This document shows positions 2,772 to 32,757 of a stretch of 64,000 nt of DNA, piece by piece. Origin of the DNA: Minisyncoccota bacterium. GTDB taxonomy: Bacteria > Patescibacteriota > Minisyncoccia > Phycocordibacterales > UBA9973. Numbering within the stretch: position 1 is the stretch's first letter; every line of letters starts with the position of its first letter. The notes under the pieces are model-generated. The model was not told the DNA's origin. It did not search any database and saw nothing but the letters and a program-made list of their open reading frames with translations. Both the position numbers and the translations under genes were made by a program. The DNA is taken from positions 16,039-80,038 of the forward strand of contig JAGOSH010000001.1 of the NCBI GenBank assembly GCA_018062425.1. The letters run 5' to 3'.

Positions 2772-2998
2772 GGTGTTTAGTATTTTAAACTAGTGATGAG
2801 TGGAATTGTTGATTCCAGACCCTGTTGTGTTTGAAAAACAAAATAGGAGCTAGATCCAACAATCACTCACACAGCCTGCGCAGCGCTCGCTACGAGAGAA
2901 AAAATTAAGCATTTTCAAGGTACTGTAACTTACGTATTATAGCATATAAACATGCCTTTTGTCAAGTGCTAATATTTGGATATGCTATAATCATTTTC

Positions 2999-5032
2999 AT
3001 GGAAGAACATCTAAAAGGACTCAACCCAATGCAGCGGGAAGCGGCGTTACACAAGGACGGACCACTTTTAATTGTGGCTGGTGCTGGTGCAGGCAAGACA
3101 AAGACTGTGGTACACAGGATGGTGAATCTTGTTAAACAAGGCGTGGAACCAGGGAGAATCCTGGCGGTAACGTTTACCAACAAAGCCGCCAAGGAAATGC
3201 GCGAGAGAACAGTGAAGGAAATGGAGAAACATGGGGAGGTACAGGATGGTATTCCGTTCGTTTCGACGTTTCACTCGCTAGGAGTGTTTATCATTAAAGA
3301 AAATGCCACGTTAATCGGATTAACAAAACACTTCAGTATATTGGACGACGGGGACACAAATTCAATTATAAAGGACATCCTAAAGGACATTGGAGTTGAT
3401 CCAAAACAATATGACCCTAAGAAAATCAAAAACATTATCTCCCGAGAGAAGGGGAAGTTTGTGAAACATGGGGAATACCGGGAGCGGAGCGAGAATTTCG
3501 GTAGTGGTATCGAACAGATTGTGGCCCAAGTTTGGGAAAAATATGAAAGCAGAAAGAAGACCGAGAACAGCCTAGACTTCGATGATCTATTGGTAAAGAC
3601 GGTTGAACTTTTGAAAGGCAACGAACAAGTGCGTGAACACTACCAGAGTAAATGGGAGTACATACATATAGATGAGTATCAGGATACGAACGAAGTGCAG
3701 TATCTGATGTCGAAAATTCTGGCGGATAAAAACAAAAACATTTGTGCGGTGGGTGATGCGGATCAGAACATTTATTCTTGGCGTGGTGCAAATTTGAAAA
3801 ACATTCTAAGTTTTGAGAAAGATTATAAAAATGCAAAGATTGTGTTGTTGGAAGAAAATTATCGTTCCACTCAGAACATCCTCGAAGCCGCGAATGAAGT
3901 GATCAAGAAAAATCAATTTCGTCCCGACAAAAATTTGTTCACCAAAAATAAAGAAGGGGAGAAGTTGTCCCTCTATGAAGCACTCGATGAATCCGACGAA
4001 GCAGAATTTGTAGCGGTGAAAGTTTTGGAGATACGAGATGGCTCCGTCGATGCAAACTTTTCTCAGGTCCTCGGAAACAATCCCCAGACCAGTTCGAAAA
4101 GTTTCATCGACTACGCAAAACCGAGCGACAACACTTTGTCCGAAATAGCAGTTTTGTATCGGGCGAATTTTCAGTCGCGAATTTTAGAAGAAGCGATGCT
4201 CCGCTACAACATCCCGTACCAAGTACTCGGAGTTAAATTCTTCGAACGAAAAGAAATCAAAGACACCCTCGCATACTTGCGAGCAGCACTGAATCCAGAA
4301 AACTTGGCTGACATAAAACGTATCATCAACTTCCCAGCACGAGGCATCGGCAAAACAACCTTGGCAAAAATTTTCGCCGGACAAAAAAGTGAACTACCGA
4401 TAAAAATGCAGATCAAGCTACAAAACTTTTATGAACTACTCGAAGAAATAAAAAATATAATTGAAAAAGAAAAACCGTCCGAAGTTATAAAATATGTTAT
4501 CAAGAAAACCGGCATCGAAGACGAGCTCCTTTCTGGTGGGGAAGAAGAAATGGAAAGACTCGAGAACATCAAAGAGTTGGCCACTCTCGCTCTGAAATAT
4601 GATTCTCTGGAAAATGGTTTAGGTACAGAAAAATTGTTGGAAGATGCGGCACTGGCCTCGGACCAAGATTCACTGATTATAAATACCAACTCCGCAAGAC
4701 GAGATGTAGTAGAGAATAAAGTTAAGTTGATGACTGTGCATGCTGCGAAGGGTCTCGAGTTTGATTATGTGTTTGTTGTCGGACTCGAAGATGGATTGTT
4801 TCCTAATCAGCGAAGTGGAGATGTGAAGAGCGGAGAAGATAGCGAAGAAGAGCGGAGATTGTTTTACGTAGCACTCACTCGAGCTCGCGAAAAGATTTAT
4901 CTATCATTTGCGAACTACCGCACAATATTCGGTTCACGTCAGATAAACGCACCATCTGAATTTCTAAACGACATACCCGGTGACTTGATTGAACGCGAAC
5001 GTGGTAATATATTGAAGACTATATATTTATAA
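2999..5032 (+). CDS. pcrA: ATP-dependent DNA helicase, UvrD/PcrA/Rep family (SF1)
   Basis: Walker A GAGAGKT, a DEYQDTN motif II, and the CAVGDADQNIYSWRGA and VHAAKGLEFD motifs. The start is taken at ATG 2999 (MEEHLKGLNPMQREA...); the listed 2966 start is a GTG lying inside a TATAAT box at 2984-2989. Confidence 0.85.
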   Translation: MEEHLKGLNPMQREAALHKDGPLLIVAGAGAGKTKTVVHRMVNLVKQGVEPGRILAVTFTNKAAKEMRERTVKEMEKHGEVQDGIPFVSTFHSLGVFIIKENATLIGLTKHFSILDDGDTNSIIKDILKDIGVDPKQYDPKKIKNIISREKGKFVKHGEYRERSENFGSGIEQIVAQVWEKYESRKKTENSLDFDDLLVKTVELLKGNEQVREHYQSKWEYIHIDEYQDTNEVQYLMSKILADKNKNICAVGDADQNIYSWRGANLKNILSFEKDYKNAKIVLLEENYRSTQNILEAANEVIKKNQFRPDKNLFTKNKEGEKLSLYEALDESDEAEFVAVKVLEIRDGSVDANFSQVLGNNPQTSSKSFIDYAKPSDNTLSEIAVLYRANFQSRILEEAMLRYNIPYQVLGVKFFERKEIKDTLAYLRAALNPENLADIKRIINFPARGIGKTTLAKIFAGQKSELPIKMQIKLQNFYELLEEIKNIIEKEKPSEVIKYVIKKTGIEDELLSGGEEEMERLENIKELATLALKYDSLENGLGTEKLLEDAALASDQDSLIINTNSARRDVVENKVKLMTVHAAKGLEFDYVFVVGLEDGLFPNQRSGDVKSGEDSEEERRLFYVALTRAREKIYLSFANYRTIFGSRQINAPSEFLNDIPGDLIERERGNILKTIYL

Positions 5033-5110
5033 AAGCACGAGCTATGAATTTTTCGAGTGGTGGCGATGCAAAGCAGGATATCCCGAGAAAAATTTGATAG
5101 CTTGTGCTTT
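5032..5110. repeat. 13-bp-stem inverted repeat (AAAGCACGAGCTA / TAGCTTGTGCTTT) holding copy 1 of a 46-bp repeat (5050-5095) in its loop
   Basis: Stem read directly from the sequence. The loop core TTTTCGAGTGGTGGCGATGCAAAGCAGGATATCCCGAGAAAAATTT matches 5421-5466 at 43/46. Confidence 0.7.
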
Positions 5111-5117
5111 CGCTAAA

Positions 5118-5969
5118 ATGCAAAAACATAAAGCAAAAAAATCATTGGGGCAAAACTTTTTAAAGTCAGAACAAGCCTTGCGCGAGATAGTCAAAGCGGG
5201 GGACATCACCCAAAGTGACACGGTCCTTGAAATAGGACCAGGCAAAGGCGCACTAACCGAAAGACTCTTGGAAAGCTCGGGCCGTGTGATAGCCATAGAA
5301 AAAGACCGTGAACTGGTAACTTTTTTGAATGAGAAATTTAAAGAAGAAATAGAAAACAAAAAACTAATTTTGGTAGAAGGAGATATTTTAGAACTGACTG
5401 TAAGCGAGATGCTTCCAAGCTTTTCGAGTGGTGATGATGCAAAGCAGGATATCCCGAGAAAAGTTTCGGAAGCATCTCGCTATAAAATCATCGCCAACAT
5501 ACCATACAATATAACAGGAGCTATCTTGAAAAAGTTCCTAACAGAGGAAAAACAACCTGAATTAATGGTGCTTTTGGTCCAAAAGGAAGTCGCTGACCGG
5601 ATAATCGCCAGAGATAGTAAAGAAAGCCTGTTATCAATTTCAGTGAAAGTTTACGGCACCCCTACATATATAATGAAGGTTGGAGCCAGATATTTCAGCC
5701 CAGCCCCCAAAGTAGACTCTGCAGTAATCAAAATAAACAACATTTCTCGAGAATTTTTCAATAAAAACAAGATCGCCGAGGCACTGTTCTGGGAATTAGC
5801 TCGAGCTGGCTTCGCCCACAAGAGGAAAGTACTGTCCGGCAACCTGAGATCTTGGCGGTCCACGGTAAACTGGCAGAAACTTTTAACTGACTCAAAAGTT
5901 CCAAAGAATGCTCGTGCAGAGGATTTATCCCTTGATGATTGGATTTCCATTTTAAAACACTTGGAATAA
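5118..5969 (+). CDS. rsmA: 16S rRNA (adenine1518/1519-N6)-dimethyltransferase RsmA/KsgA
   Basis: The SLGQNFL hallmark, the SAM-binding LEIGPGKGALT motif and NIPYNI. The start is taken at ATG 5118 (MQKHKAKKSLGQNFL); the listed start is TTG. The gene contains an in-frame repeat insertion at 5404-5480. Confidence 0.85.
   Translation: MQKHKAKKSLGQNFLKSEQALREIVKAGDITQSDTVLEIGPGKGALTERLLESSGRVIAIEKDRELVTFLNEKFKEEIENKKLILVEGDILELTVSEMLPSFSSGDDAKQDIPRKVSEASRYKIIANIPYNITGAILKKFLTEEKQPELMVLLVQKEVADRIIARDSKESLLSISVKVYGTPTYIMKVGARYFSPAPKVDSAVIKINNISREFFNKNKIAEALFWELARAGFAHKRKVLSGNLRSWRSTVNWQKLLTDSKVPKNARAEDLSLDDWISILKHLE
5404..5480. repeat. copy 2 of the 46-bp repeat (5421-5466), flanked by the 13-bp inverted repeat GCGAGATGCTTCC / GGAAGCATCTCGC, inside the rsmA coding sequence
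   Basis: Seen directly. The rsmA reading frame stays open through it and the insertion encodes roughly SEMLPSFSSGDDAKQDIPRKVSEASRYK. The central octamer GGATATCC is a perfect palindrome. Confidence 0.7.
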
Positions 5970-6005
5970 AAACAAAGTGCTAGTATAATATTTAAATATA
6001 AAAAC

Positions 6006-6809
6006 ATGATTACCTTTCCTAAAAAATGGTTTTTTCTTTCTGCTGTTCTGCTTTTTATAGTAGTACCTGTTTTGTTTGTCTTGGCATTTATTACTGAAGT
6101 AAAAACTCTACCAGAAAGCAACATAGGACAAACTGAGGTTACTTTAAATGGTAGAATCACTGCAAGTGGAAACATCCCAGTACTTGGTCATTTTCGATAT
6201 ACTAAAACCGCTACTGCTAGTTGCATTAATATGCAAAACGAAACTAACACTCCCGACCAAACACTTGTTAATAACTCAGGAACTTATTTGTTTAGTCACA
6301 ATCTAACGGGCCTACAATCGGGAACCACTTATTATTACTGTGCCATCGGCACACAAGGCGGCGTAAGCCAATTCGGAAACGTTGAGAGTTTCATAACCAA
6401 CACAAACGGTGGGGGTAATAATGGGGGTCCGAGCTTTGGAGGGGGTTTCGGCTCTGGATCAAGTAATAGCTCTGTTACAACTACAAGTTTACAAAAACAA
6501 TTCTCTGGAATTATCATAAAATTAAAAGCAAAAGAAATCGAGGCTTTGGAAAACGCTAACTATGCGTGTGCTGTACCGGGCACATCAATCGAAATTAGGC
6601 CCAAAGGAATGAAAGGTTTCCAGCAAACAAGTTACATAATACCTGCTGCGACCATCTCGAAAACAAAACACGCTCCTTCCGTAAACCAACAAATAGTAGG
6701 TAAATACAGTGGAAAAACCTCGGTAACCTGTATTTTCCAAGGCGAACCCCCACTCGAAGAAACCGTTACTTTAAACACAATAAAGATGTATGGTAATTCT
6801 GCTCAGTAA
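6006..6809 (+). CDS. hypothetical membrane-anchored or secreted protein with a TxYYYCA motif domain
   Basis: N-terminal hydrophobic segment. The motif GTTYYYCAIG is shared with three or four repeats in the 10579-14076 protein. A Gly/Ser/Asn low-complexity linker follows. Confidence 0.5.
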   Translation: MITFPKKWFFLSAVLLFIVVPVLFVLAFITEVKTLPESNIGQTEVTLNGRITASGNIPVLGHFRYTKTATASCINMQNETNTPDQTLVNNSGTYLFSHNLTGLQSGTTYYYCAIGTQGGVSQFGNVESFITNTNGGGNNGGPSFGGGFGSGSSNSSVTTTSLQKQFSGIIIKLKAKEIEALENANYACAVPGTSIEIRPKGMKGFQQTSYIIPAATISKTKHAPSVNQQIVGKYSGKTSVTCIFQGEPPLEETVTLNTIKMYGNSAQ

Positions 6810-7753
6810 TGAAAAAATTTAAATTCAAAATTAAAATAAACCCTGCCTATAAAAAATACTTGCCGAGCAAGAGTTTTACTATATTTGTCGGAGGCGGTAT
6901 TACCCTGGTAATAATCGTTTCCGTTATTTTTGGTTTAGCTAAAGGTAAAGAAAACTTCTCCGCCCTCAAAACACAAGATTTGAAAACAGATGGTTCGACT
7001 TTGTCGGATTTGCTTCAAACCGACACCGACCTCGATGGAGTTTTGGACTGGGAAGAAGCCCTTTGGGGGACAGACAAAACCCTGAAAGCAACATTCAACG
7101 CAACCCCAGACGCGATTTATGTAAAACAAAAGAAAGACGCTTTAGCCACAGAAGACGATAGTGAAGGCTTAAATGAGACAGACAAGTTCGCGCGGTCATT
7201 TTTTGCTTCATATTTGGCACTCGAATCTGCTGGTGAAGACCCAGAGACGATAAAAAATCTAGGTCGTGCAGTAGGAGAGAAAATCGGTGACCCAAACTTG
7301 GTAGACGTTTTCGCCGAAGGGGATGCGAAGGTGGTGGTGGGTACTGATATCTCGGATGTAAAAAAATACTATACCGCAATCCAGGAAGTTTTCGACAAGT
7401 ACAGGGAAACAGGCATGGGTGACGAAATTGATATTGTAAACTCTGGACTCGTCAGTGCTCAAGATAAACTAGACTCAGTCAACAGGAACAAATTAGAACG
7501 CACGAGTAAAACCTACAAAGATTTCGCGGATGAAATGATGAAGATTAGCGTACCCCGAGAATACATAAGCGCCCACGTAAAAATGGCAAATAGTGCTTAT
7601 AATACAGGTGTTTCGGTCTTATCGATGACAAAAATAGTTGACGATCCGATTGTTGGGTTAGGCGGTATAACTCAATATCAAAAGTACAGCGAGGATTTTG
7701 TAAAAGCCGCAGGGGATTTAGACGAGGAATTAGCCCAGGTATTGGAAGAATAA
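6809..7753 (+). CDS. hypothetical membrane-anchored protein
   Basis: Its start overlaps the previous stop (TAATG). One N-terminal TM helix, a DTDLDGVLDWEE acidic motif, no catalytic motif. Confidence 0.5.
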   Translation: MKKFKFKIKINPAYKKYLPSKSFTIFVGGGITLVIIVSVIFGLAKGKENFSALKTQDLKTDGSTLSDLLQTDTDLDGVLDWEEALWGTDKTLKATFNATPDAIYVKQKKDALATEDDSEGLNETDKFARSFFASYLALESAGEDPETIKNLGRAVGEKIGDPNLVDVFAEGDAKVVVGTDISDVKKYYTAIQEVFDKYRETGMGDEIDIVNSGLVSAQDKLDSVNRNKLERTSKTYKDFADEMMKISVPREYISAHVKMANSAYNTGVSVLSMTKIVDDPIVGLGGITQYQKYSEDFVKAAGDLDEELAQVLEE

Positions 7754-7782
7754 GTTTTTTTTAAGTTATAATACTAAAATAG

Positions 7783-10566
7783 ATGCAAAGCCATATATTT
7801 AAAAATACAGTCACCGCGTTTCTGGTTATGCTTTTTGTGTTTTCGCCTGTTTTGGAAGTAAAAAAAGCAGCCGCTCAAACGGGGGGAGGTTATCCTACCA
7901 CTGGTTCTTATAGTTATGGTTCTGGTGGAACCTCTGGTGGACTAAGTGGCTATATAAAAGGACTCGGCCCAGCAATAACACAACTCCCTAAATGTAAGAA
8001 AAAGATTAAGGGTGCAATCAAAAGTCTGTTTGGTAAAAGCAAGGGCATACTCGCCAAAGAAGCATCTGGCACGTTGGGCACATCCTTGGGTGGAACTATT
8101 TCTCAATCAGCAGCCCAACAAAACACTATTCAAAACTACGACAAAGAAGCTAATGACAAGTTGAAAAAACAAGATACGAAATTGAGTCGTATAGACGAAG
8201 CTACTGGTTCTCTGGACGAAAATTCTTCTTGTCTCGACTCTATTGGTAAATTAATAATAGACAGAATGATCCAGAGAATCACCCTAGCTACAGTTGAGTG
8301 GATCAAAACCGGAAACAGTGGCGGTCCAGCTTTCGTCCAAGACCCTGGCAGGTTCTTGCGAGACATTGCCAAAGAAGAAATCCTTACTTTTGGACTAGAG
8401 CTTAACCTGGGCGCAGACTGTCAGGCTGTATTTTCTGGTAATGTTTTAGGTACAACAGGTAGCACCAACATAGACTCAACAGACGATTGTTTAAACCCTT
8501 ATGGTAAGTCTTGGTTCAAATATCAAGCTGAAGCTTTTAATAAAAAATTCAACGACAATGCACGTTATTCACTAAACGAACTCATCGCTGAAACAACCCC
8601 CCAATACACCGGGGCTTCATTCCATGCTAATTTCTCCTCTGGAGGATGGAACGCTTGGACAGCGCTTACATCTGTACCCGCAAACAACCCTGTCGGTTTC
8701 GGTCTTTTGGCGGAAACTGAATTATCGAAAAGGTTAGCTGGTGTTCAAAAATCAACAGCCGAACAAGTTCAAGACGCTCTCAAAGAATCAAATGGCTTCT
8801 TGGGGGACTATCGTTGTGCAGACCCAGAAGGAACCACCAAGGACCAGCACAAAGCAGCACTCGAATCTGGAGACACAGACCTGGCTTGTAAGAGATGGGA
8901 ATACGTAACCCCGGGTAGAGCTGTAGCTGAAGAAGCTCTAAAGATAAGTCATTTCCAAGAAAATAAACTAATTCGAGCAGACACCCTAAACGACGCAATG
9001 GCGGCAATAGTAGATGCTCTTATACAAAGATTCTCAAATGAGTTGTACGAGAAGGGATTAGCTGGTTTCTCGGATGAAGGTTCTGATGGTGGGTTGATAC
9101 TGAACGCTTACGCCATCGATGGTAGTTATGGTATCAACCAAGTTGAACAAGACTTCCCGGAATACTTGCAAGGTTCAGAATGGTTTAACGCACATTCTGG
9201 TTTCAATATAAGAACTGATTTAACTCAAGCAATCATAGACGAACAAAGGGTTTTTGCCGAGAAACTGCAAACTCAAAACGAGGTGCTGGAACGAGTAATT
9301 CAGTGGACTCAGGTACTTGATTATTGTATTCCGGGACCGAGTCCAAAAAAATACAGGGAGTTGAATGAGATAGATTTGTTCTCGGATACAGAAGAAGTCA
9401 CGCTGAAATTCGACTTGGCAGAGCTAGTGCTGTCGTTTGACCCAACTGGAATATTCTCCGGTATCGGCCAAGCTATTTTTGAAAAACAACACGAAAAAGA
9501 GGTCAAGAAGATAATTGCTACTCGTCTGGGCCTCATGTTCGATATACACATATATGGTGCTTTCGGATACACCGAACATGAAGACCAGCTAAATATCCAA
9601 CAAGACCAAATCTTGAACAAAGACGATATGGAAGGTTTGGGTAAAAACATCATTGCCTCCTACAAGGAAGTTATCCATAACACATACTTCAACGGTTCAA
9701 AGTCGGCTGCACCTATGCCAATAGTTACCAACGAAGCGCGGAATGAATTTGAAAGAATTGATGCCTACAAAGGAATCATTGAGGAAAACGATGATAGGGT
9801 TGGATTAATGAATGCCGTCGTACAAAGACTTGGTAGAATCAAAGAAACAATCGAAGACCTGGGACCACAGCCAGACCCTACTGATCCAGCTTTTGAGGAT
9901 TACGAAAACTCATTGAAGCCATTCATCGCAGAGTTCGGTCGTCTAACAGGTGAAATGGTGACAGGGGATGATATTGCTAAAGCCCATAAACTGCTACAAG
10001 AAATGGAAGATAAGGAGGTCTATATTCACGATGACCTTCTAACCGGTCCTGGTGGTTGCGAGGAAGAAATGATCAAATTATACGATGATGTTCCAGATGG
10101 TAGAGCTTTGTACAGTAAATTCTACCGAAGGCAGCCATATGGCGAACCTATTCCGTATCTTTACGGTTCCGGAGTAACAGGAAGCAATATCAGTCCTTAT
10201 GACCCAGGACCAAAGGTAGTGCTTAATCCACACGACAGAACTGCTTGGAGTGAACTATCAGTAAAGAACTGGAACCCAAATGATGGTTTCTTGTTTGGTA
10301 GTGTATATTGGAATTTCTGGGCTCGACCATACGATGGAGGTAACGCATATCAAGGAGATAACAAAACACACAACCCTCCTAATTTAGGGAAAATTAGAAA
10401 TAATTCTTGTCCCGAATTTATTGATGTTGTTTATTTCTCATTTCCAAACAGAGCTGACCTTGGTGGTCTAGAACCACAAGGTGCGCTGGGTTATTCAATA
10501 CCATATGGACCTAACAACTGTGGTGTAATAACTCGAAGATTAGAAGAGATGCTTGGTATGTGGTAG
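7783..10566 (+). CDS. large hypothetical secreted protein (927 aa)
   Basis: Signal peptide followed by a Gly/Ser/Thr-rich linker and a large domain of unknown function. Confidence 0.55.
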   Translation: MQSHIFKNTVTAFLVMLFVFSPVLEVKKAAAQTGGGYPTTGSYSYGSGGTSGGLSGYIKGLGPAITQLPKCKKKIKGAIKSLFGKSKGILAKEASGTLGTSLGGTISQSAAQQNTIQNYDKEANDKLKKQDTKLSRIDEATGSLDENSSCLDSIGKLIIDRMIQRITLATVEWIKTGNSGGPAFVQDPGRFLRDIAKEEILTFGLELNLGADCQAVFSGNVLGTTGSTNIDSTDDCLNPYGKSWFKYQAEAFNKKFNDNARYSLNELIAETTPQYTGASFHANFSSGGWNAWTALTSVPANNPVGFGLLAETELSKRLAGVQKSTAEQVQDALKESNGFLGDYRCADPEGTTKDQHKAALESGDTDLACKRWEYVTPGRAVAEEALKISHFQENKLIRADTLNDAMAAIVDALIQRFSNELYEKGLAGFSDEGSDGGLILNAYAIDGSYGINQVEQDFPEYLQGSEWFNAHSGFNIRTDLTQAIIDEQRVFAEKLQTQNEVLERVIQWTQVLDYCIPGPSPKKYRELNEIDLFSDTEEVTLKFDLAELVLSFDPTGIFSGIGQAIFEKQHEKEVKKIIATRLGLMFDIHIYGAFGYTEHEDQLNIQQDQILNKDDMEGLGKNIIASYKEVIHNTYFNGSKSAAPMPIVTNEARNEFERIDAYKGIIEENDDRVGLMNAVVQRLGRIKETIEDLGPQPDPTDPAFEDYENSLKPFIAEFGRLTGEMVTGDDIAKAHKLLQEMEDKEVYIHDDLLTGPGGCEEEMIKLYDDVPDGRALYSKFYRRQPYGEPIPYLYGSGVTGSNISPYDPGPKVVLNPHDRTAWSELSVKNWNPNDGFLFGSVYWNFWARPYDGGNAYQGDNKTHNPPNLGKIRNNSCPEFIDVVYFSFPNRADLGGLEPQGALGYSIPYGPNNCGVITRRLEEMLGMW

Positions 10567-10578
10567 AAAAACAAAAAT

Positions 10579-13500
10579 ATGAAAATTTTTAAAAAAGTAA
10601 AAATAGTTGTTTCCCTAATAATTGCCTTATCTGTTGTGCCGTCTGTTGCTCATGGTGCACTAGTTCTCAAAACCTTACAAGCTATCAACGTAACACAGAG
10701 CACAGCAACACTCCTTGCACGCGTTAGCGACCTGTCTTCCCCCGAGGGAACCATAGTAGACCTGTATGGTAAATTCCGGTATTCCACCAACGCAAACAAC
10801 GCAAACAAGACCTGTGAAACAATGCAAAGTGCTACCGAGGTGGCCGCTGATCCACCACCACTCACAGGACTCGATTTTTTTACTAATAGTGCTTACAACT
10901 TCCAAAAGAAAGACCTTGGTCCTCTGCAACAAAATACACAGTATTATTATTGTGCTGTGGTTTCCAGTACCGACGATTTCTCGAGCGGTGTTTTGTATGG
11001 AAACATGGTGACTTTTACACCAGAACCACCTCCAGACTTGATAGGTAGTGTTATAACAGTAGGCTCGAGTAACGTGGGGGAAAGTACTGCAACTGTTTCT
11101 GGACAAATCATAGAAGACAATCCTAACACTCCGGTGTTTGGTCGCTTTCGTTACTCAGAAAATTTCGGTCCTAGTTGTGGATCATTGCCCAACGCGCAAA
11201 CGAGCCTCAAGAGGAAAAAAACAGGGACCGGTAATTTTACCTTTAATGTTACCTTAACAGGACTCAAGGATGGAACAAAGTATTACTATTGTGCTGTGGG
11301 AGCGGACAATTCTGACTTTTTTGATGCGGTTTATGGAAATGTAAAAGATTTTACCACTCCGTTTAGTAGTAGCACTAACAGAATCGGCCCGGTTAAAACA
11401 CTGACTGCTACACAAATAGATGACACTGAGGTTACCCTTCGTGGCAATTACACTGCTGGTGGACCAGGATTTGCGTACTTTAGAGTGTCCACGGCAGACA
11501 TACCACCGGTATTCTGTAACGACATTTACGGTTCTGACATGATTGGTGTCACCTCAAACATACCAGACCCAATAGGGTATACTACTGGCGGAGATTTTGG
11601 TGTCCACGTAAACGGACTAGACCCAGAAACTGATTACTACTACTGTGCAGTAGTATCCAACGGTGCGTACGATCCAACAAAACCTAGATCTTTAAATGAA
11701 GCTCAGATTAAATACGGAGAAGTGAAAAAATTTAGAACTCTGCCTTGTGACAGCTGCAACAATACAACCATTACTACAAAAGGATCGGATGTAATAGATA
11801 GTACTAGCGCTAATCTGACAGGGACTTTCAAGTCTTCGCGTGCAGTGAATGTTTTTTTTGAGTATTCAAAGTTTGGAATTATTGATCCAACAAACCCACA
11901 ACCACCAACAGCGCTCTGGCAAGCAACTCCAGAGAAAAAATACGGTGCCAATTCTAGCGCTAACTACAACCAGCTGATAAAAGATTTAGAGAAGAACACA
12001 ACATACAGCTTTAGAGCTGTCGCTAAGGTGACCAACCCTGATACTTCAATAGAAATATTCTACGGTCAAACACTACAATTCACCACCAACAAATACAACG
12101 GGGTTACTGGTGAAGACATTGATGATGGAAACGGAATTGATGACCCTCCTATTATAGACCCTGGAGTGGGTGTAGGTCCTGGAGTAATAATAACCACAGG
12201 AGACGACAACTGCCCAGCGGGAACAACTGGTACGTTCCCTGCATGTACGCCGATCATAAACCCATTAGGTTGTTCAATTGGGTGGCTTGGAACCCCTCCA
12301 AACTGTTTCAACCCTGGACCTGGAGGAACCGGTACTGACCCAACAACCAAAACTCCCAAAGTTACCGTAACAGCTAACCCTGTATTTATTGACATTGGTG
12401 AGTCTTCGACTATCTCGTGGACATCATCCGCTGTTTCTACTTGTACTTTAAATGGTTACGAAGTTCCAACAAGTGGCTCTGCTGACACAGGAGGGTTGAA
12501 CAATACCACTTCTTATACAGTTGCATGTTCTGGAATCAATGGATCAGCTGCGGATACTGCAAGTGTTTTTGTAAATATCGACAATGGTAACGGTGGAGGA
12601 GATTTGATTTGGGTTGATGTAACAGCTTCACCTGTTTTCTTTCCACTAAATGCTTCAGTTACCATATCTTGGACATCAGGAGGAGCACAGTTTTGTGATA
12701 GTGGAGGACATGGAGAGGGAACCAGTGGATCGTTTGTTATACCATTAGTCAAAGCTAGTTCTTCTCACACAGTAACTTGCAGTGGTCAGGCTGGCACCGC
12801 CAGCGATACTGCATACATTGTATTGTACGACACCGGCATACCACCTCTACCTACAAACATGTGTGTTCCTACCACAGAAACCAGAAACTTGAACTGCTCT
12901 GCTGGTTATACTGGTTCTGTAAGTCAAACGAGAACATCTTCTTGTCCTACCTTATACGGAAATCCTGTTTGGGCCCCTTGGACAACAACCACTAACACCT
13001 GTACAGACCCGAATGGCAACACAGCCCCACCACCTCCACCACCTCCTCCTGGAGCGTGTTTCTCAAGCAACCAAACTAGACTATTGGCCTGTCCAGCTGG
13101 TTACACTGGTTCAATAAACCAAGCACGTACCTCTTCTTGTCCTACTGCAAACGGAAATCCTGTTTGGACTGACTGGGTAACCACTTCTGAAAATTGTAAA
13201 GACGCGAATGGTAATGGTTTACCTCCAACACCACCAGGCGGCACGCCACCTGGTCCAGGGAATCCTGGAGTTCCACCTAATCCAGCAAACCCTGGAGTTC
13301 CACCTCCACCAGGCGGACCAGGTCAGAACGGCAACCCACCACTAACACAAGACAATGACAATGATGATGATGGTGTAGGTAATCCGCACGACGATGACAC
13401 TGATGGTGATTGGGATCCAAACGATACTGACACCGATGACGATGGAGACGGTATTCCTGACTTTGTTGATGGTTCACCAAATGGTCCAGGCACCGGAGAC

Positions 13501-14076
13501 GACTTTGATGGGGGAGGGCTTCCAAACTCTTTGGATACAGACATGGATGGCGACGGAATTCCAAACTACTTAGACGGTGACACTGATGGAGACGGAGTAC
13601 CTAACGATATTGACCTAGACGATGATGGAGATGGAATTCCTGACTTGCTCGACCCAACGCCTCGAGGCACACATGGTGACCGAGGAAGTGATTTGTTGGT
13701 TCTGGGTCAAGAAGCTACCCCACCAAACGACGCAATAGTACGCTATCATGAAGGTATTGAGACTGTTTTCGCAAGGCAGATTCGCCGAAACACAGCTTTC
13801 GCCGAGAGGTATGGATATACTGGGGGAGACATGGTCAACTTTGCTTGGAACCTGGCGCACACATTTGCTAAATTCTATTTCGGATACATCAACGAATCAA
13901 ACCTGGAAGTTCGAGTTTCCGCACCAGATGTTTCTGCGTACGAATTACGACAAGTGTCCAACACACTGGTTGTGTATGAGTATTACAAAAATGTGATAGT
14001 TGATATCAGGAGTAAGACAGTGGAGTTTAAAAACAAGAATCCGTACGAATATTATTTCCGCAGAATTTTCCGATAA
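10579..14076 (+). CDS. giant surface/adhesin-like protein with YYYCA-motif repeats, Cys-rich tandem modules, polyproline and thrombospondin-type-3-like Ca-binding repeats
   Basis: Signal peptide. The motifs TQYYYCAVV, TKYYYCAVG and TDYYYCAVV. Two tandem ~55-aa Cys-rich modules (C..TR.L.C.AGYTGS..Q.RTSSCPT..GNPVW..W). PPPPPPPPG. Repeated DxDxDGxxD units (DTDGDGIPDFVDG, DTDMDGDGIPNYLDGDTDGDGVPNDIDLDDDGDGIPDLLD). Confidence 0.65.
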   Translation: MKIFKKVKIVVSLIIALSVVPSVAHGALVLKTLQAINVTQSTATLLARVSDLSSPEGTIVDLYGKFRYSTNANNANKTCETMQSATEVAADPPPLTGLDFFTNSAYNFQKKDLGPLQQNTQYYYCAVVSSTDDFSSGVLYGNMVTFTPEPPPDLIGSVITVGSSNVGESTATVSGQIIEDNPNTPVFGRFRYSENFGPSCGSLPNAQTSLKRKKTGTGNFTFNVTLTGLKDGTKYYYCAVGADNSDFFDAVYGNVKDFTTPFSSSTNRIGPVKTLTATQIDDTEVTLRGNYTAGGPGFAYFRVSTADIPPVFCNDIYGSDMIGVTSNIPDPIGYTTGGDFGVHVNGLDPETDYYYCAVVSNGAYDPTKPRSLNEAQIKYGEVKKFRTLPCDSCNNTTITTKGSDVIDSTSANLTGTFKSSRAVNVFFEYSKFGIIDPTNPQPPTALWQATPEKKYGANSSANYNQLIKDLEKNTTYSFRAVAKVTNPDTSIEIFYGQTLQFTTNKYNGVTGEDIDDGNGIDDPPIIDPGVGVGPGVIITTGDDNCPAGTTGTFPACTPIINPLGCSIGWLGTPPNCFNPGPGGTGTDPTTKTPKVTVTANPVFIDIGESSTISWTSSAVSTCTLNGYEVPTSGSADTGGLNNTTSYTVACSGINGSAADTASVFVNIDNGNGGGDLIWVDVTASPVFFPLNASVTISWTSGGAQFCDSGGHGEGTSGSFVIPLVKASSSHTVTCSGQAGTASDTAYIVLYDTGIPPLPTNMCVPTTETRNLNCSAGYTGSVSQTRTSSCPTLYGNPVWAPWTTTTNTCTDPNGNTAPPPPPPPPGACFSSNQTRLLACPAGYTGSINQARTSSCPTANGNPVWTDWVTTSENCKDANGNGLPPTPPGGTPPGPGNPGVPPNPANPGVPPPPGGPGQNGNPPLTQDNDNDDDGVGNPHDDDTDGDWDPNDTDTDDDGDGIPDFVDGSPNGPGTGDDFDGGGLPNSLDTDMDGDGIPNYLDGDTDGDGVPNDIDLDDDGDGIPDLLDPTPRGTHGDRGSDLLVLGQEATPPNDAIVRYHEGIETVFARQIRRNTAFAERYGYTGGDMVNFAWNLAHTFAKFYFGYINESNLEVRVSAPDVSAYELRQVSNTLVVYEYYKNVIVDIRSKTVEFKNKNPYEYYFRRIFR

Positions 14077-14139
14077 AAGTTTCCGTAAAATATAGTTTTT
14101 GTTTCCTTGGTTTGCTACAATGATTAAGTATTTGCATTA

Positions 14140-16461
14140 ATGAAAGCTATCAAGAAAAACTTTTGGTTAAAAGTCGCACTCGGAACATTATTCCTTGCTG
14201 TTTTTCTTGTGCCTGTAAGTTTCAAGAAAGAAAACAGCAATGATTTTATATCTCTCAAAACTAACACTGCTTACGCTGAAATAGAAAAATTAGTAATACT
14301 ACCAGTTGATGCAGCTGGCATCACGGCAACCGGTGTCAATTTGACTATTGAAGTTACTGGTCAACCTGGAACAGATGAGAAAATAAGTCTCACCCTTAAA
14401 ACCAAGTGGAGCCTAATAAACACCTGGGCTATTCCTGACACCATGATTGACAAGACAGCGGCGAGCCAGACAATAAACCTGCCACTTCAATACAACTTCG
14501 ACAAAGACACAATTTATCAAATTACTGTTTTTAAACCAGACAATTCTGTTATTTCCAACACTGTAGAATTCAAAGGGGATGGTAGTGCGATAGACAACAA
14601 TGGTGGACCGGCTGGTACCACCTCAACAGGACAGAACCCTATTCCACAGAAACCATCCCTTGATATTGGTTGTGGTTATCACCCAGAAACCTGGTTTACA
14701 AAATGCCCTGTACTTTTTTTGTATAATTTTATATACGAACCTATTTCTTATCTAACAACTCTAGCGGCAAAATTTCTAGACTTCTTTGTGTATTATTCGA
14801 TCAGCAGTGACGCATATCGTAGTGGTTTCGTAGAAAAAGCCTGGAGTGTTGTCCGAGACATTTCCAATATGTTTTTTATCATCGCGCTTCTGTATATTGC
14901 AATAAAAACAATACTGCAGATGAATACAAGCGATAACAAGAGAGCCATTGGATACATAATCATGATAGCCCTTTTAATAAACTTCAGTTTGTTTGCTACA
15001 CGAGTGGTGATAGATGCATCGAACATCTTGGCTCGGGTGTTTTATAACAACATCACTCCGTATGACGAAAACGGTACGGCAATTCCCCCAAATAGCAACA
15101 AACCAAAATCAGTATCTGTGGGATTGGTTCGAACTTTTGAACCACAAAAGGTGATTAGTGATCCAAAGACCAATACTGCCCAGTTTGCTATCGTAACAAT
15201 AATCTTCATAATACTTCTTGTTTACATGATTTTGATGTTTATCTCGATATCTATGCTTTTCCTGGGACGAGTTGCTGGACTTTGGATGGCGATGATGTTT
15301 TCACCTCTAGCCTTCACCTCAGTCGCTATGCCTTTCTCGATTCCTAAATTCAGTTTCAAAGAATGGAAGACTGACCTATTTAAGTTAGCTTTTATGGCGC
15401 CTATTTATGCTTTCTTCCTTTATGTCATTATTCTATTTGGAGGATTTTTGGAAGCAATTCAGTATGATACAGCCAATACTGCTTCTGGCCCGAACGGTTG
15501 GTTGGATGCTCTGATGAAAAACATAATTCCTTTTATGTTGATATTTGCATTACTCAAGGAGGCCAAATCTATAACCAAAGACTATGCTGGTAAAATGGGT
15601 GAGACGTTCAACAGCGCTGGAGCAGTGGTGGGTGGTTTGGCTCTGGGCGCAGCCACTGGAGGCTTGGCGATGGCTGGACGCGCATCGTTGGGTCGCGCTG
15701 GTTCTTGGATAGCTAGAAACACCAGTAAAGATACTTTTGGAGGCAGGGTTGCTAACAGGCTTGGTAGAAGAATGGGTACTGGTAGTTGGGATGCTCGTAA
15801 TGTAAAAGTTTTCGGTAAAGGACTCTCTAATACTGGTCTCAAAAATCTAAACACTGTTAGTACTCCAAAGGCAGGTGGTTGGGAAAAGATTCGCGAAGAT
15901 AAGAAACAAAAGAGATTAAAACGCGCAGAAGAAGTCAGTAAGGTTGGATACGGGGAAGGGGTGGCTAAGGATTTGCGTAAAGCTGAGTTAGATCTACACA
16001 CACTTCTAGACGAAAACAAATCGAAACTTGAATCTTTAGACAAAGACATTGCAGGGGCAAGGCAAAAACTGCAAGACGCAAAAACAGCAGATGATGGTAG
16101 CACAGCATCAAAATACAAAATAGCTAAATACAACGAGCAAATAAAGGTGTTTAATAAACAAAAAACAGCTCTTAGAAAAGGAGTAGATATTAAGATGGAT
16201 TATATTGATTTCGATGAAAATGATGCAGTTGTATCAAAAAGCATAGATGAAAAATACGCTAGCATTAAGGTTGGAGGAAAATCAATTCATGACTTAGAAA
16301 CAGATATTGTTCCTAAGGCTAGAAAAGCTGTGAGAGATAAAGAGAAAAAACGAAAGCTCGCTTACGCTGACAGACTAAGTATGCGATTCTGGTCGGATGG
16401 GGCGAAAGAAGTAGCACATAAAGTACGTTCAGGAGCTATCTACGAAAACAAAACAGCTTAA
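14140..16461 (+). CDS. polytopic membrane protein, VirB6/TrbL-like (putative T4SS channel component)
   Basis: Signal peptide, a ~180-aa extracellular domain, at least 5 TM helices, a Gly-rich segment GGLALGAATGGLAMAGRASLGRAG, then a Lys-rich coiled-coil tail. The architecture resembles Gram-positive VirB6 homologues (PrgH/TcpH). Assigned from topology and gene context only. Confidence 0.4.
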   Translation: MKAIKKNFWLKVALGTLFLAVFLVPVSFKKENSNDFISLKTNTAYAEIEKLVILPVDAAGITATGVNLTIEVTGQPGTDEKISLTLKTKWSLINTWAIPDTMIDKTAASQTINLPLQYNFDKDTIYQITVFKPDNSVISNTVEFKGDGSAIDNNGGPAGTTSTGQNPIPQKPSLDIGCGYHPETWFTKCPVLFLYNFIYEPISYLTTLAAKFLDFFVYYSISSDAYRSGFVEKAWSVVRDISNMFFIIALLYIAIKTILQMNTSDNKRAIGYIIMIALLINFSLFATRVVIDASNILARVFYNNITPYDENGTAIPPNSNKPKSVSVGLVRTFEPQKVISDPKTNTAQFAIVTIIFIILLVYMILMFISISMLFLGRVAGLWMAMMFSPLAFTSVAMPFSIPKFSFKEWKTDLFKLAFMAPIYAFFLYVIILFGGFLEAIQYDTANTASGPNGWLDALMKNIIPFMLIFALLKEAKSITKDYAGKMGETFNSAGAVVGGLALGAATGGLAMAGRASLGRAGSWIARNTSKDTFGGRVANRLGRRMGTGSWDARNVKVFGKGLSNTGLKNLNTVSTPKAGGWEKIREDKKQKRLKRAEEVSKVGYGEGVAKDLRKAELDLHTLLDENKSKLESLDKDIAGARQKLQDAKTADDGSTASKYKIAKYNEQIKVFNKQKTALRKGVDIKMDYIDFDENDAVVSKSIDEKYASIKVGGKSIHDLETDIVPKARKAVRDKEKKRKLAYADRLSMRFWSDGAKEVAHKVRSGAIYENKTA

Positions 16462-17651: not shown

Positions 17652-18092
17652 ATGCAATTCAAGGTTCCACAATTCTTGGATATTGAGGATAAACTTTTTG
17701 GGCCTTTTACTTTCAGCGAGTTCGTATACTTGGCTGGAGGAGCAGGACTTTGTTATGTGGTATACAAAGCCCTGGGTCTTTTGCTTGGCTTGATACCCAT
17801 AGCGGCCATCGCCGGACTCGCGGTAGCTTTAGTGTTTTACAAACCCAACGACAAGCCCTTGGTCAACATGATCGAAGCTGGCATCAAATACGCAGCTCAA
17901 AGCAAACTGTACATCTGGAAGCGAAGAGTTGTGAAATCTACTACCAAAACTCCTGCTCCTAGCCACAGAAACCCACAAACCATAAACGTAAGCCCGGAAC
18001 ATACCATCAAATTAACTGGTAGCAAACTTCGAGATTTAGCTTGGAGTTTAGATATTTTAGACACAAAAAAAGAAGGCACCAATGGCAATTAA
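17652..18092 (+). CDS. small two-TM membrane protein, VirB3-like
   Basis: 146 aa with two adjacent hydrophobic helices, sitting immediately upstream of the VirB4 ORFs as in PrgI/VirB3 arrangements. Assigned from position and topology. Confidence 0.4.
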   Translation: MQFKVPQFLDIEDKLFGPFTFSEFVYLAGGAGLCYVVYKALGLLLGLIPIAAIAGLAVALVFYKPNDKPLVNMIEAGIKYAAQSKLYIWKRRVVKSTTKTPAPSHRNPQTINVSPEHTIKLTGSKLRDLAWSLDILDTKKEGTNGN

Positions 18093-18732
18093 CGCACGCA
18101 CAACTCAAGAGTTCATACCAATCAAAGAAGTCCGTGATGGTGTTGTTGTTTTAAAAGACGGCGGTCTTCGAGCTATCATTCTAGCGAACTCTATTAACCT
18201 TTCTTTGAAATCTGAAGATGAACAGAAGGCTACAATCATGCAGTTTCAATCACTTTTAAATACTTTGGATTTCCCGATCCAGATATCTGTCCAATCTCGT
18301 CGGCTAGACATACGTCCATATTTGCTTTTGCTTGAAAACAGAATGAAGGTTCAAACCGAACCCTTGCTCAAGCTCCAAACCAAAGAATATATGGAGTTTA
18401 TCAAGAACTTTACTGATACCGTCAGCATCATGACCAAAAACTTCTTCATTGTTGTACCTTTCACTCAAACAGCATTACCAACTAGCGGGGGTGGTGATTT
18501 CTTTAGTTTCTTTTCCAAAAAAACAAAGAGCGAACTAACGAAAGTAGCCGAGATGGATTTCGAAGAAAAGCGTTCTCAACTCGAACAGAGGGTGGGGGTA
18601 GTGGAGCAAGGGTTAGCGAGTTGTGGAATCAAATCAATCCAGTTAGGCAGTGAAGAAGTAGTGGAAGCCTTTTACAAAGTTTTTAACCCTGGTGAATCTC
18701 AAGGTAAAATTGACCTTGGAGAAATCAAATAA
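18082..18732 (+). CDS. VirB4/TrbE N-terminal domain, separate ORF (split gene or frameshift)
   Basis: FIPIKEVRDGVVVLKDGGLRAIILANSINLSLKSEDEQKATIMQFQSLLNTLDFPIQI matches the conserved N-terminus of Gram-positive conjugative VirB4 ATPases. It ends 2 nt before the ATPase ORF, which is in a different frame. Confidence 0.55.
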   Translation: MAINARTTQEFIPIKEVRDGVVVLKDGGLRAIILANSINLSLKSEDEQKATIMQFQSLLNTLDFPIQISVQSRRLDIRPYLLLLENRMKVQTEPLLKLQTKEYMEFIKNFTDTVSIMTKNFFIVVPFTQTALPTSGGGDFFSFFSKKTKSELTKVAEMDFEEKRSQLEQRVGVVEQGLASCGIKSIQLGSEEVVEAFYKVFNPGESQGKIDLGEIK

Positions 18733-18734
18733 CA

Positions 18735-20573
18735 ATGGGAATTTTTGATACAATTTTGGGTAAAAAGAAAGAAGAGATTAGTACAACTAATGCTTCTATT
18801 ATGCCGATCTTGCCGGAGGAAATCTATGAATCCGCGACCCTCGAATTACAAGACGTCATAGCACCCTCAGCGCTTAAAATCGAACCGAAATCCATAAACC
18901 TAGGGGAGAAGATCGCTCGTACATTTTTCATCATATCTTATCCTAGGTTTCTATCAGACAACTGGTTCTCGCCGATAGTGAATTTGGACAAAGTATTCGA
19001 TGTCGCTATTTTCGTCCACCCGATCGACACCTCACTAGCGCTACGTCAATTCCAAAAGAAAGTAGCCGAAGTGCAGAGCCAGATAAATGTCCGCGAATCC
19101 CGTGGAGTGGTGCGCGACCCCATGCTCGATACTGCGTACCAAGACCTAGAGTCTCTACGTGACAACCTAATTCAAGCTCAAGAAAAGCTGTTTGATGTTG
19201 GAATCTATATCACTATCTACGCAGACAACGAACTTGAACTCTATAAAATCGAAAATGAAATCAAGTCTATATTGGAATCAAAGTTGGTATATATAAAACC
19301 AGCACTTTTCCAACAAGAAGATGGATTTAAAAGTGTTATTCCGATAGGCACAGACTTTTTGAATATCAACCAGAAATTAAATTCAGAACCGCTTTCAAGT
19401 GTTTTCCCATTCGTTTCTTTCGACTTAACATCTGACAGAGGTATCCTCTACGGTATCAACCGCCACAACTCGTCTTTGGTGATCTTTGATCGTTTCTCTC
19501 TCGAGAACTATAACTCGGTTACTTTTGCCAAGTCAGGTAGTGGTAAAAGTTACGCCACCAAGCTCGAGATATTGCGGTCACTTATGTTCGACGTTGATGT
19601 TATCGTCATAGACCCGGAAAGGGAATATGAATTCTTGTCAGAAGCAGTCGGTGGTAGGTATTTCAACATCTCACTTTCATCCGACCACCACATCAACCCT
19701 TTTGATTTACCAATACCCAGAGAAGACGAAACTCCAGAAGATGTGCTACGTTCAAACATCATCAACCTGGTTGGCTTGTTTCGGTTAATGCTCGGAGGAT
19801 TAACCCCAGAAGAAGACGCTTTGGTTGACCGGGCAATCTCTGAGACTTATGCCATCAAAGATATAACCCCTAACTCCGACTTTGCCAATATTGAACCACC
19901 ACTACTATCAGACTTTGAAATGGTGCTCTCTGGTATGGAAGGGTCCGAATCCGTCGTACAACGTCTGGTTAAATACACTCGTGGATCTTGGTCTACTTTC
20001 ATTAATAGGCCTTCGAACGTTGATATCAACAAGAAGTTTGTAGTCTTTTCGGTGCGAGATATGGAAGACGAATTAAAACCGATCGCCATGTACATCGTAA
20101 CCCACTATATCTGGAATACTATTAGAAAAAACCTAAAGAAACGCTTGTTGGTGGTGGATGAGGCTTGGTGGATGATGAAATCAGAAGATACTGCTTCGTT
20201 TTTGTATTCGTTGGCCAAAAGAGGACGTAAATACTACTTGGGTTTGGCTACTATTACCCAGGACGCCGCAGACTTCATGAAGTCTCCATACGGAGTACCT
20301 ATTATCACCAACTCTTCAATTCAAATACTGCTGAAACAGTCTCCGAGTACTATTGAAATCCTCCAAAAGACATTTAACCTAACTGACGAAGAAAAATACT
20401 TGCTCTTGGAGTCTGGTGTAGGTGAAGGGATATTCTTTGCTGGCTTAAAACACGTTGCCATCAAGATAGTGGCATCTTATACCGAAGACCAAATCATCAC
20501 TTCAGATCCTTCACAAATATTATCAATCAAAAAATCGAAGGATGACCTCGAATCCCTCTCTGGTAAGTCTTAA
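18735..20573 (+). CDS. virB4: VirB4/TrbE/CagE-family type IV secretion ATPase (ATPase domain)
   Basis: Walker A FAKSGSGKSYATK, Walker B LLVVDEAWWMM (the DEAW signature), and ITQD near the C-terminus. Lengths 216+612 sum to about the typical VirB4 length. Confidence 0.8.
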   Translation: MGIFDTILGKKKEEISTTNASIMPILPEEIYESATLELQDVIAPSALKIEPKSINLGEKIARTFFIISYPRFLSDNWFSPIVNLDKVFDVAIFVHPIDTSLALRQFQKKVAEVQSQINVRESRGVVRDPMLDTAYQDLESLRDNLIQAQEKLFDVGIYITIYADNELELYKIENEIKSILESKLVYIKPALFQQEDGFKSVIPIGTDFLNINQKLNSEPLSSVFPFVSFDLTSDRGILYGINRHNSSLVIFDRFSLENYNSVTFAKSGSGKSYATKLEILRSLMFDVDVIVIDPEREYEFLSEAVGGRYFNISLSSDHHINPFDLPIPREDETPEDVLRSNIINLVGLFRLMLGGLTPEEDALVDRAISETYAIKDITPNSDFANIEPPLLSDFEMVLSGMEGSESVVQRLVKYTRGSWSTFINRPSNVDINKKFVVFSVRDMEDELKPIAMYIVTHYIWNTIRKNLKKRLLVVDEAWWMMKSEDTASFLYSLAKRGRKYYLGLATITQDAADFMKSPYGVPIITNSSIQILLKQSPSTIEILQKTFNLTDEEKYLLLESGVGEGIFFAGLKHVAIKIVASYTEDQIITSDPSQILSIKKSKDDLESLSGKS

Positions 20574-20596
20574 AAGATGATATAATAATTGAGAGT

Positions 20597-24436: not shown

Positions 24437-24437
24437 A

Positions 24438-25154: not shown

Positions 25155-25200
25155 GGAGACATTCTATACCAAAAACCCGAAAAATCAAAACGTAAAAAAC

Positions 25201-25708: not shown

Positions 25709-25715
25709 TTAACCT

Positions 25716-32705: not shown

Positions 32706-32711
32706 AAACTT

Positions 32712-32740
32712 AAAAAACCCAGCATGCGCTGGGTTTTTTA
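32712..32740. terminator. intrinsic terminator after tyrS
   Basis: AAAAAA-CCCAGC-atgc-GCTGGG-TTTTTTAAG. Confidence 0.7.
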
Positions 32741-32757
32741 AGTTTCTAGTGTTTATC

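Follow-up and report, generated by a model that had tools for sequence, protein, structure and literature searches.

Rickettsia palindromic elements (RPEs) are short palindromic repeats that lie in frame within housekeeping open reading frames (ORFs) and are translated as additional peptide at positions compatible with the protein fold; they fall into several families, none of which has its own transposase (PMC10969869). In a 64,000-nt stretch of DNA from a Minisyncoccota bacterium, a member of Candidatus Paceibacterota (contig JAGOSH010000001.1, positions 16,039 to 80,038; hereafter the window, numbered from its first base), a 46-bp repeat occurs twice, once in the spacer between uvrD and ksgA and once in frame within ksgA, and each copy lies inside a long hairpin. 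We give a probability of roughly one half to the reading that this repeat is the core of a short, non-autonomous, hairpin-forming DNA repeat, selfish or neutral, whose cores are copied between resident hairpins. As far as the sequences tell, it would resemble RPEs in being a short palindromic repeat of a bacterium with a reduced genome, in frame in ksgA, uvrD and a dus-like gene, with no transposase of its own seen among the window ORFs scanned, and by analogy the elements appear to work like RPEs, although their size, copy number and distribution do not make them members of that group. RPEs measure about 100-150 bp and number 44 in unrelated genes of one genome, whereas the core here has about 45 nt (77-90 nt with arms) and its two to three copies per genome are clustered in uvrD, the spacer and ksgA; moreover, here the apex is conserved, the base is site-specific and the cores are exchanged, and the phylum is a different one, belonging to the candidate phyla radiation (CPR). 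On this reading, the element would survive in essential genes because it is in frame and in a tolerant loop.

Several other systems invite comparison. REPINs are predicted to fold in single-stranded DNA (ssDNA) or mRNA, keep their pairing by compensatory changes and show long vertical persistence (PMC3116915). The elements described here are likewise hairpin-forming repeats with pairing kept by compensatory changes, but REPINs are extragenic, number hundreds of copies, consist of REPs conserved at the base with a variable middle and are linked to RAYT proteins, whereas our elements are mostly intragenic and few, their apex is the conserved part, and no RAYT was seen in the 64 kb. [quoted passage not shown] An earlier annotation made from the sequence alone (the first-pass annotation) had doubted that the repeat is a classical MITE, and the flanks, being inverted and not direct repeats, bear this out. 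The IS200/IS605-derived palindrome-associated transposable elements need distinct left-end and right-end subterminal hairpins and TnpA, whereas here one hairpin is the whole element and the window holds no TnpA. Elements of the IS1397/ISKpn1 type, which are full transposase-encoding insertion sequences, reportedly insert specifically into the loops of resident REP palindromes; landing in a palindrome loop would be the common trait, but the incoming unit here is a 45-nt non-coding core. Finally, quasipalindromes are made more perfect by template switching (PMC7202029), a process that would give complementary site-specific arms without selection, but it is known from E. coli and yeast as a source of point mutations and small patches, not as a way of maintaining or spreading a repeat family. 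CPR bacteria have tiny genomes and few recognised mobile elements, and literature searches revealed no relevant account of in-frame elements, whether palindromic or MITE-like, from CPR bacteria, Parcubacteria or Patescibacteria.

Structure of the two hairpins

The two copies occupy positions 5050-5095 and 5421-5466 of the plus strand, 371 bp apart, and differ at three of 46 positions (G/A, C/T and A/G); a re-reading of the sequence confirmed these coordinates and the 43/46 match that had been reported for them. The 27-mer common to both, GATGCAAAGCAGGATATCCCGAGAAAA, occurs exactly twice in the window, compared with no occurrence in 100 shuffles. The flanking inverted repeats are also as first described, with 5403-5416 complementary to 5468-5481 at 14 of 14 positions and 5032-5044 complementary to 5098-5110 with one G.T pair. 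The 46-bp core had been placed in the loop of these repeats; it does lie inside them, but about 9 nt at each of its ends pair with each other (AATTTTTC/GAAAAATT and AAGCTTTTC/GAAAAGTTT), and one of these pairs shows a compensatory change from T-A to C-G between the copies. Because the core ends also pair, the true stem has 23 bp and, on its 3' side, a single bulged base, and by folding the real loop of both copies is a 32-nt structured apex that caps this stem.

From the base upwards, each hairpin (77-79 nt) has a site-specific outer stem of 14 bp, a 1-base bulge, an inner stem of 9 bp made of A/T pairs and the apex, which runs from outside to inside through a closing C-G pair, a tandem G.A, one G-C pair, two further G-C pairs and a small TGC-AAA-GCA hairpin. 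In the spacer hairpin (5032-5110, plus strand) the outer stem is formed by 5032-5045/5097-5110, the bulge by G5096, the inner stem by 5046-5054/5087-5095, the tandem G.A by 5055-5056/5085-5086 and the apex GCAAAGC by 5068-5074; in the hairpin that lies in frame within ksgA (5403-5481, plus strand) the corresponding parts are 5403-5416/5468-5481, C5467, 5417-5425/5458-5466, 5426-5427/5456-5457 and, again with GCAAAGC, 5439-5445. As RNA, the two copies have predicted folding energies of -33 and -43 kcal/mol (z = -5.7 and -7.2), and as DNA of -17 and -22 kcal/mol (z = -4.5 and -6.1); the opposite strand of both hairpins is 8-9 kcal/mol weaker as RNA (-24 vs -33 and -36 vs -43 kcal/mol). A palindrome noticed earlier within the core, GGATATCC, is present and conserved, but it is self-paired in no predicted fold.

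The spacer hairpin begins on the last base of the stop codon (5030-5032) of uvrD, a uvrD/pcrA-type helicase gene (2966-5032, plus strand), and ends 7 nt 5' of the ATG (5118) of ksgA, also named rsmA, which encodes the 16S rRNA dimethyladenosine transferase (5118-5969, plus strand) and is the host of the second copy. This hairpin had been described as terminator-like, but its 3' arm ends with GTGCTTTCGC, it is followed by no T tract, and the region 4800-5700 contains no terminator-like site, that is, no GC-rich stem with a T tract, so that it is not a canonical intrinsic (Rho-independent) terminator. Other candidate identities were considered and rejected. A permissive Rfam scan of 4900-5600 gave chance-level matches only, the best at 20 bits against a gathering score of 120; judged by eye, the hammerhead, twister, kink-turn and C/D-box motifs do not apply, as the element has a tandem G.A, but a 3-nt bulge and a CUGAUGA core are both missing. 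The template and variable repeats of a diversity-generating retroelement were dismissed because the differences between the copies are not adenine-specific and the window has no reverse transcriptase domain, and programmed ribosomal bypass because the frame is open, with no stop codon after a take-off codon. A comparison of the arms of the two window copies, which might have come from a donor copy, revealed no convincing similarity, and when the window was searched for TTTYGARTGGT, one mismatch being allowed, matches other than the two known copies were no more numerous than expected by chance.

Distribution of the family and covariation of its stems

A metagenome scan with the pattern GCNNAGCAGGATANCCNGAGAAAA returned 19 loci (loci carry L numbers below), two of which, L015 and L025, were chance matches in which the 5' half of the element is absent; together with the loci from protein look-ups this gave 22 distinct copies of what we call family A. 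The 5' half, TTTTTCGARTGGTGAYGWT, is nearly invariant though it lies outside the search pattern, and the consensus of the core is TTTTTCGARTGGTGACGWTGCGAAGCAGGATATCCYGAGAAAAA. Ten copies stand in ksgA, all at the same site and one of them reversed; nine, two of them reversed, stand in uvrD, in the variable region between KILEIL and AILYRANFQ; two stand in the uvrD-ksgA spacer (the window and L001), and one in a dus-like gene adjoining dnaX (L013). Thus, 20 of the 22 are intragenic, and the ksgA, uvrD and dus copies all keep the frame open. The copies are not spread genome-wide but confined to a few sites, and every one of the 22 lies in a long hairpin whose arms differ by site. The first-pass annotation had seen in the repeat a possible mobile element; with 22 copies in several arm contexts, in three genes and one spacer and in both orientations, it is indeed a repeated, evolutionarily mobile nucleic-acid element. 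Viral contigs contained no match to the core, and a protein search with a concatenated 56-aa insert-peptide query returned no match. The contig of L013 ends a few bases outside its hairpin (1499-1580, in the dus-like gene), which suggests that such repeats break metagenome assemblies.

In species-representative genomes, a scan with a 20-mer of the core yielded a single real locus, L001, from a Candidatus Paceibacterota metagenome-assembled genome. It is collinear with window positions 3126-11072 (80.6% identity), and both copies are present there at the corresponding two places, which are also the only places where the core 20-mer occurs in that assembly. One further match in the genome collection, L002, has the 20-mer alone in common and no 5' half, and corresponds to the single chance match expected.

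The stems of the 22 copies are 15-27 bp long and contain 461 Watson-Crick pairs, 29 G.T pairs and 13 mismatches, with G.T (29) more frequent than A.C (5). A covariance model built from seven copies retrieved all 22 at 60-101 bits, with 94.1 bits for the spacer hairpin and 101.3 bits for the ksgA hairpin of the window. On the resulting alignment, with the caveat that it is fitted to the model, 94% of the stem cells pair, compared with 72% after shuffling and 40-54% with slid partners, 18 of 28 pairs show changes on both sides, and the covariation score is 0.58 vs 0.16, a value that none of 500 shuffles reached. That the arms are complementary can also be seen in the raw sequences, and the core pair that adjoins the tandem G.A is without exception either A-U (13 copies) or G-C (nine copies).

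Conservation is concentrated in the core: species with a KsgA identity of only about 61-67% have cores that are 86-100% identical; the arms evolve roughly three times faster, with their pairing retained. Among the 17 forward in-frame copies, core substitutions are distributed 3/6/3 over the codon positions, and nine of the variant codons are non-synonymous and three synonymous. We therefore conclude that the constraint acts on the nucleic acid and not on the peptide. These data bear on the simplest alternative, a local duplication or protein-level insertion without mobility, in which the KsgA loop peptide was copied once to the spacer, or the reverse, and kept for its amino acids. The window by itself would suit such an event, with only two copies 371 bp apart that are both inherited at the same places in L001. 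However, the same core is found in uvrD, dus and ksgA of other genomes, in several arms and in both orientations, the copy in the spacer does not encode protein, variation is not higher at third codon positions than at the other two, nine of 12 variant codons are non-synonymous, and the peptide is predicted to be disordered. A local duplication had been foreseen in case the core occurred only at these two places and orthologous KsgA proteins contained the same peptide; that is not the picture found, and we regard this explanation as refuted, with a probability close to nil.

The insert in KsgA

Among 120 Paceibacterota KsgA proteins, which range from 247 to 331 aa, many have an insert between DILEF.. 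and YKIIANIPYN and others have none, so that the region before the NIPY motif is as variable in length as had been supposed. The ksgA copy was also said to keep the frame open and to add about 26 aa; the frame is open, but the net gain is smaller. The hairpin encodes S96-R121, and the window KsgA is about 19 aa longer than its nearest insert-free orthologues and 13 aa longer than B. subtilis KsgA in this region. The core peptide is FSSGDDAKQDIPRK (residues 102-115). The inserts of other KsgA proteins belong to several peptide families, one of which, FFSGYPASQRHHSK, is the translated reverse complement of the present core; the ksgA site therefore hosts the element in either orientation. An AlphaFold model of KsgA made with 47 sequences (mean predicted local distance difference test score, pLDDT, 87.9; predicted template modelling score, pTM, 0.84) assigns a pLDDT below 50 to residues 102-110 and 112-118, that is, to the core peptide plus the next few residues, and this segment sits between helix 95-98 and strand 122-127. 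In the model, then, the insert appears to behave as a tolerated, disordered surface loop.

Identity between the window and L001 is mosaic around this insert, at 97-100% from the ksgA hairpin to NIPYN (5390-5600) and 63-80% upstream of it (5150-5390). A tract of recent recombination around the element would fit this pattern.

Apparent exchange of cores between resident hairpins

Cores found at the same sites share the junction T5-C-GA-R ... Y-GA-G-A5, in which T5/A5 form the inner stem, followed by the closing C-G pair and the tandem G.A. The superfamily with this junction comprises families A, C2, D and S and further cores in L028 and L029. Family D occurs three times in L030 (reversed in uvrD, reversed in the spacer and forward in ksgA), and family C2 occurs in uvrD of L016, of L020 and of the window. 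The C2 element of the window, with the core TTTTCGAACTGGTCTGGGGATTGTTTCCGAGGACCTGAGAAAA, is found at 4041-4116 on the minus strand (covariance model match 30.8 bits, E=4e-5); it folds, and it lies reversed and in frame in the variable loop of uvrD, with the peptide FSQVLGNNPQTSSKSF. By the covariance model, the window contains three superfamily members only, all within 4041-5481.

The first-pass annotation held that the same core sits in two unrelated stems and had perhaps entered pre-existing hairpins. Entry into existing hairpins is supported by the three observations that follow, but the stems are not unrelated, since the pre-existing hairpins are resident members of the same superfamily. 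First, the window, L001, L028, L030 and L031 have spacer hairpins with homologous arms, and the cores inside these arms come from four families. Examples of such arms with compensated changes are GCACGAGCTAT/ATAGCTTGTGC, GCACGAGATAT/ATATCTCGTGC and GCAAAGTTAT/ATAACTTTGC; the arms of L031 were misplaced by MAFFT, and the likeness of its GCACGAGATAT to GCACGAGCTAT of the window was judged by reading the sequences. Second, ksgA hairpins with core A (window, L003 and L008) and with core B (L033) share the outermost part of their arms, AGCGAR ... YTCGCT. The AGCGAR part corresponds to the Ser-Glu codons of insert-free orthologues, for example L032 with GTAAGCGAA-TTTAAAAAA-TATAAA, and the YTCGCT part adjoins the conserved TAT AAA. 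Third, the insert-free close relative L028 has at the ksgA site (10407-10427) a bare perfect palindrome, TGTCAAAGAC-C-GTCTTTGACA (21 nt, 10 bp), which could be an empty hairpin or an excision footprint; no such bare palindrome was found at this site in the more distant insert-free genes of L031 and L032. In L003, a KsgA N-terminal extension with two small palindromes, ATCGCCTCATCGGCGAT and CCGCCGTAGAGGCGG (10020-10055), replaces the spacer hairpin.

Cores also evolve in concert, as neighbouring hairpins of one genome carry the same core family, with lineage-specific variants common to both. GCAAAGC is present in both window copies and in both L001 copies, family D occupies all three L030 sites, GAT occurs in both L018 copies (44/44 identical), and GTT occurs in both copies of L009 and in both of L020; a family A core is found in both uvrD and ksgA of L003, L009, L018 and L020. 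The whole hairpin, arms included, has also moved, because the arms of the dus copy of L013 are homologous to the ksgA arms of L016 and L018 (ACGAAGCARTYTTGWC ... GWGCAARACTGCGAAGT). In uvrD, the flanks of the variable segment are about 95% identical between the window and L001, but the segment itself is wholly different, with a reversed C2 element in the former and a GAGGTCGGACCTC-type palindrome in the latter, where it fills the variable loop (about 950-990). Turnover of the elements is therefore fast.

A host function would offer another explanation, namely that the hairpin is a cis-acting structure of the uvrD-ksgA transcript or DNA (a site of RNase III processing or stability control, a pause or a protein-binding site), with selection keeping both stem and core. 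A long hairpin does fill every related spacer examined and ends 7-20 nt before the ksgA start, its arms are conserved, the covariation is strong, G.T is tolerated more often than A.C, and the core is conserved at the nucleotide level. RNase III substrates have a size that stems of 22 bp or more match. Against this stand the different and unrelated cores within the same arms in close relatives, the many orthologues without the ksgA insert and some without the spacer, the similar hairpins at several unrelated UvrD positions, and the lack of an Rfam match or terminator tract already mentioned. Furthermore, the fold is strand-specific, yet the core occurs at the same sites in both orientations relative to transcription, which argues against a specific mRNA role of the core, an argument that does not exclude a role of the long stem itself. 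A host function seems to us quite improbable.

How the cores may be copied

In the reading that we prefer, the hairpins occupy a handful of tolerant places, namely the UvrD variable loop, the spacer, the KsgA loop before NIPY and, rarely, other genes, and those within genes would be translated in frame as a loop that is predicted to be disordered. A resident hairpin would be long-lived, its site-specific arms staying complementary by compensatory change, and the core would be the exchangeable part, copied in either orientation among hairpins of the same neighbourhood. This copying may occur by short-patch gene conversion or by template switching during replication, with the common junction as an anchor, at times when the hairpins stand extruded in ssDNA; templated repair within a hairpin ("quasipalindrome correction") would keep and extend the arms, and now and then a whole hairpin would be copied into a new gene. 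No dedicated enzyme would be needed for these steps. We infer this mechanism from the patterns of arm and core exchange, the apex motif favoured in ssDNA and the known behaviour of quasipalindromes (PMC7202029).

As regards the apex, GCGNAGC (GCGAAGC or GCGGAGC) is found in 17 of the 22 family A copies, and family D has GCCGAAGGC. The "mini-hairpin DNA" motifs GCGNAGC and CCGAAGG are extraordinarily stable as DNA, with melting at 76.5 C, and are much less stable as RNA (PMC13037366). With their GNA triloop, the apices of most family A copies and of family D resemble the mini-hairpin of ssDNA replication origins, but those of the window read GCAAAGC, and there is no sign that the elements act as priming signals.

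The cores could instead be moved by a trans-acting ssDNA enzyme encoded elsewhere, such as a RAYT-like or IS200-IS605-like HUH tyrosine transposase or a structure-specific nuclease or recombinase, which would read the junction, excise the core and insert it into the loops of hairpins. Core families that are otherwise unrelated have the junction and termini in common, and conservation is far stronger in the core than in the arms or the host genes, as would be expected of a sequence that a protein has to recognise. The apex has a motif favoured in ssDNA, the arms stay paired as they do in REPINs, in which compensatory changes are frequent (PMC3116915), and the empty palindrome at the orthologous site could be an excision footprint. 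However, among the window ORFs scanned against Pfam, none has a transposase, HUH, recombinase/integrase or reverse-transcriptase domain, and a dense set of replication and repair genes was seen; in particular, the cognate transposase that the first-pass annotation had thought of, of the IS200/IS605 type or any other, is absent among the window ORFs scanned. The copy number is tiny and limited to about four sites, unlike REP/REPIN or MITE populations, there is no target-site duplication, and the topology is opposite to that of REPINs, with a conserved apex and a variable base. We consider such an enzyme unlikely, if somewhat less so than a host function.

Several points weigh against the reading that we prefer. 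Template switching and gene conversion have no direct support here, and shared termini of about 12-20 nt would be marginal substrates for them. A core identity of 86-100% between divergent species is not expected of a purely neutral element, so that something further would be needed, be it selection on the element itself (through recognition by some factor), horizontal exchange or a function for the host. A trans-acting enzyme may lie elsewhere, as our view is limited to 64 kb of the genome. The excess of G.T over A.C in the stems (29 vs 5), a count that is biased by the fold program, is also expected under an RNA-level constraint; the spacer hairpin is kept in every related genome examined that has the spacer, and its arms may have a host function. 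Lastly, the apex of both window copies, GCAAAGC, departs from the canonical mini-hairpin motif.

A more far-reaching proposal, which we put forward only tentatively, is that the elements represent a previously undescribed class of "loop cassettes", in which a core of about 45 nt, defined by the T5-C/tandem-G.A/G-A5 junction and a DNA mini-hairpin apex, homes from loop to loop between resident hairpins in either orientation by a structure-directed ssDNA mechanism, be it a dedicated enzyme or enzyme-free replication template switching. If this were true, it would be a mode of mobility distinct from transposition with terminal inverted repeats and target-site duplications, and the surface loops of essential CPR proteins would be continually remodelled by it. 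If our findings hold, the essential proteins UvrD and KsgA, together with UvrB and UvrC for other repeat types, carry in-frame hairpin repeats, which would explain their length variation, would caution against calling such inserts functional domains, and would extend the notion of "selfish DNA inside proteins" beyond Rickettsia. The combination of a conserved apex, co-evolving arms and a swappable core would also make a compact natural system for hairpin-driven template switching or for a new structure-specific DNA enzyme, and such hairpin repeats would be a cause of disrupted metagenome assemblies.

Other repeats and genes in the window

A second palindromic family, GAGGTCGGACCTC-N10-GAGGTCCGACCTC, is present in the window at 43634-43669, 49057-49092 and 50191-50226. 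It lies in frame once in uvrB (42969-45143, peptide RSDLKGSRGPTS) and twice in uvrC (48977-50350), where one of the copies splits the GIY-YIG region. A different hairpin insert is also found in frame in uvrC at 49744-49827, with 18-bp arms GGAAAAAACGAGTTATTC/GAATAATTCGTTTTTTCC, a 48-nt GC-rich loop and the peptide SANALGDIGQGTRGAS.

Gene order at 23951-28675 is of the origin type, with jag (R3H), yidC, rnpA and rpmH on the minus strand followed by dnaA (26005-27351) and dnaN (27578-28675) on the plus strand; the GC skew has no clear switch there and gives no usable signal of replication direction. If the origin were located between rpmH and dnaA, replication would meet the plus-strand genes at 82-23941 head-on. 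A cluster resembling type IV secretion or conjugation genes is present at 17652-22583, including a PrgI-like protein, a TraG/VirB4-type P-loop ATPase and a type IV secretion system pilin fused to a YkuD L,D-transpeptidase domain, and large ORFs without a Pfam match (7783-16461) are found around it. Directly after tyrS, at 32703-32748, there is a perfect 21-bp inverted repeat, TAGAAACTTAAAAAACCCAGC/GCTGGGTTTTTTAAGTTTCTA, with a 4-nt loop, which from its sequence looks like a bidirectional terminator. The ORF of a T2SSE/PilB-like ATPase (36062-38065, minus strand) and that of polA (37798-40215, plus strand) overlap by 268 nt at their 5' ends, and the start codon of polA is probably further downstream than listed.

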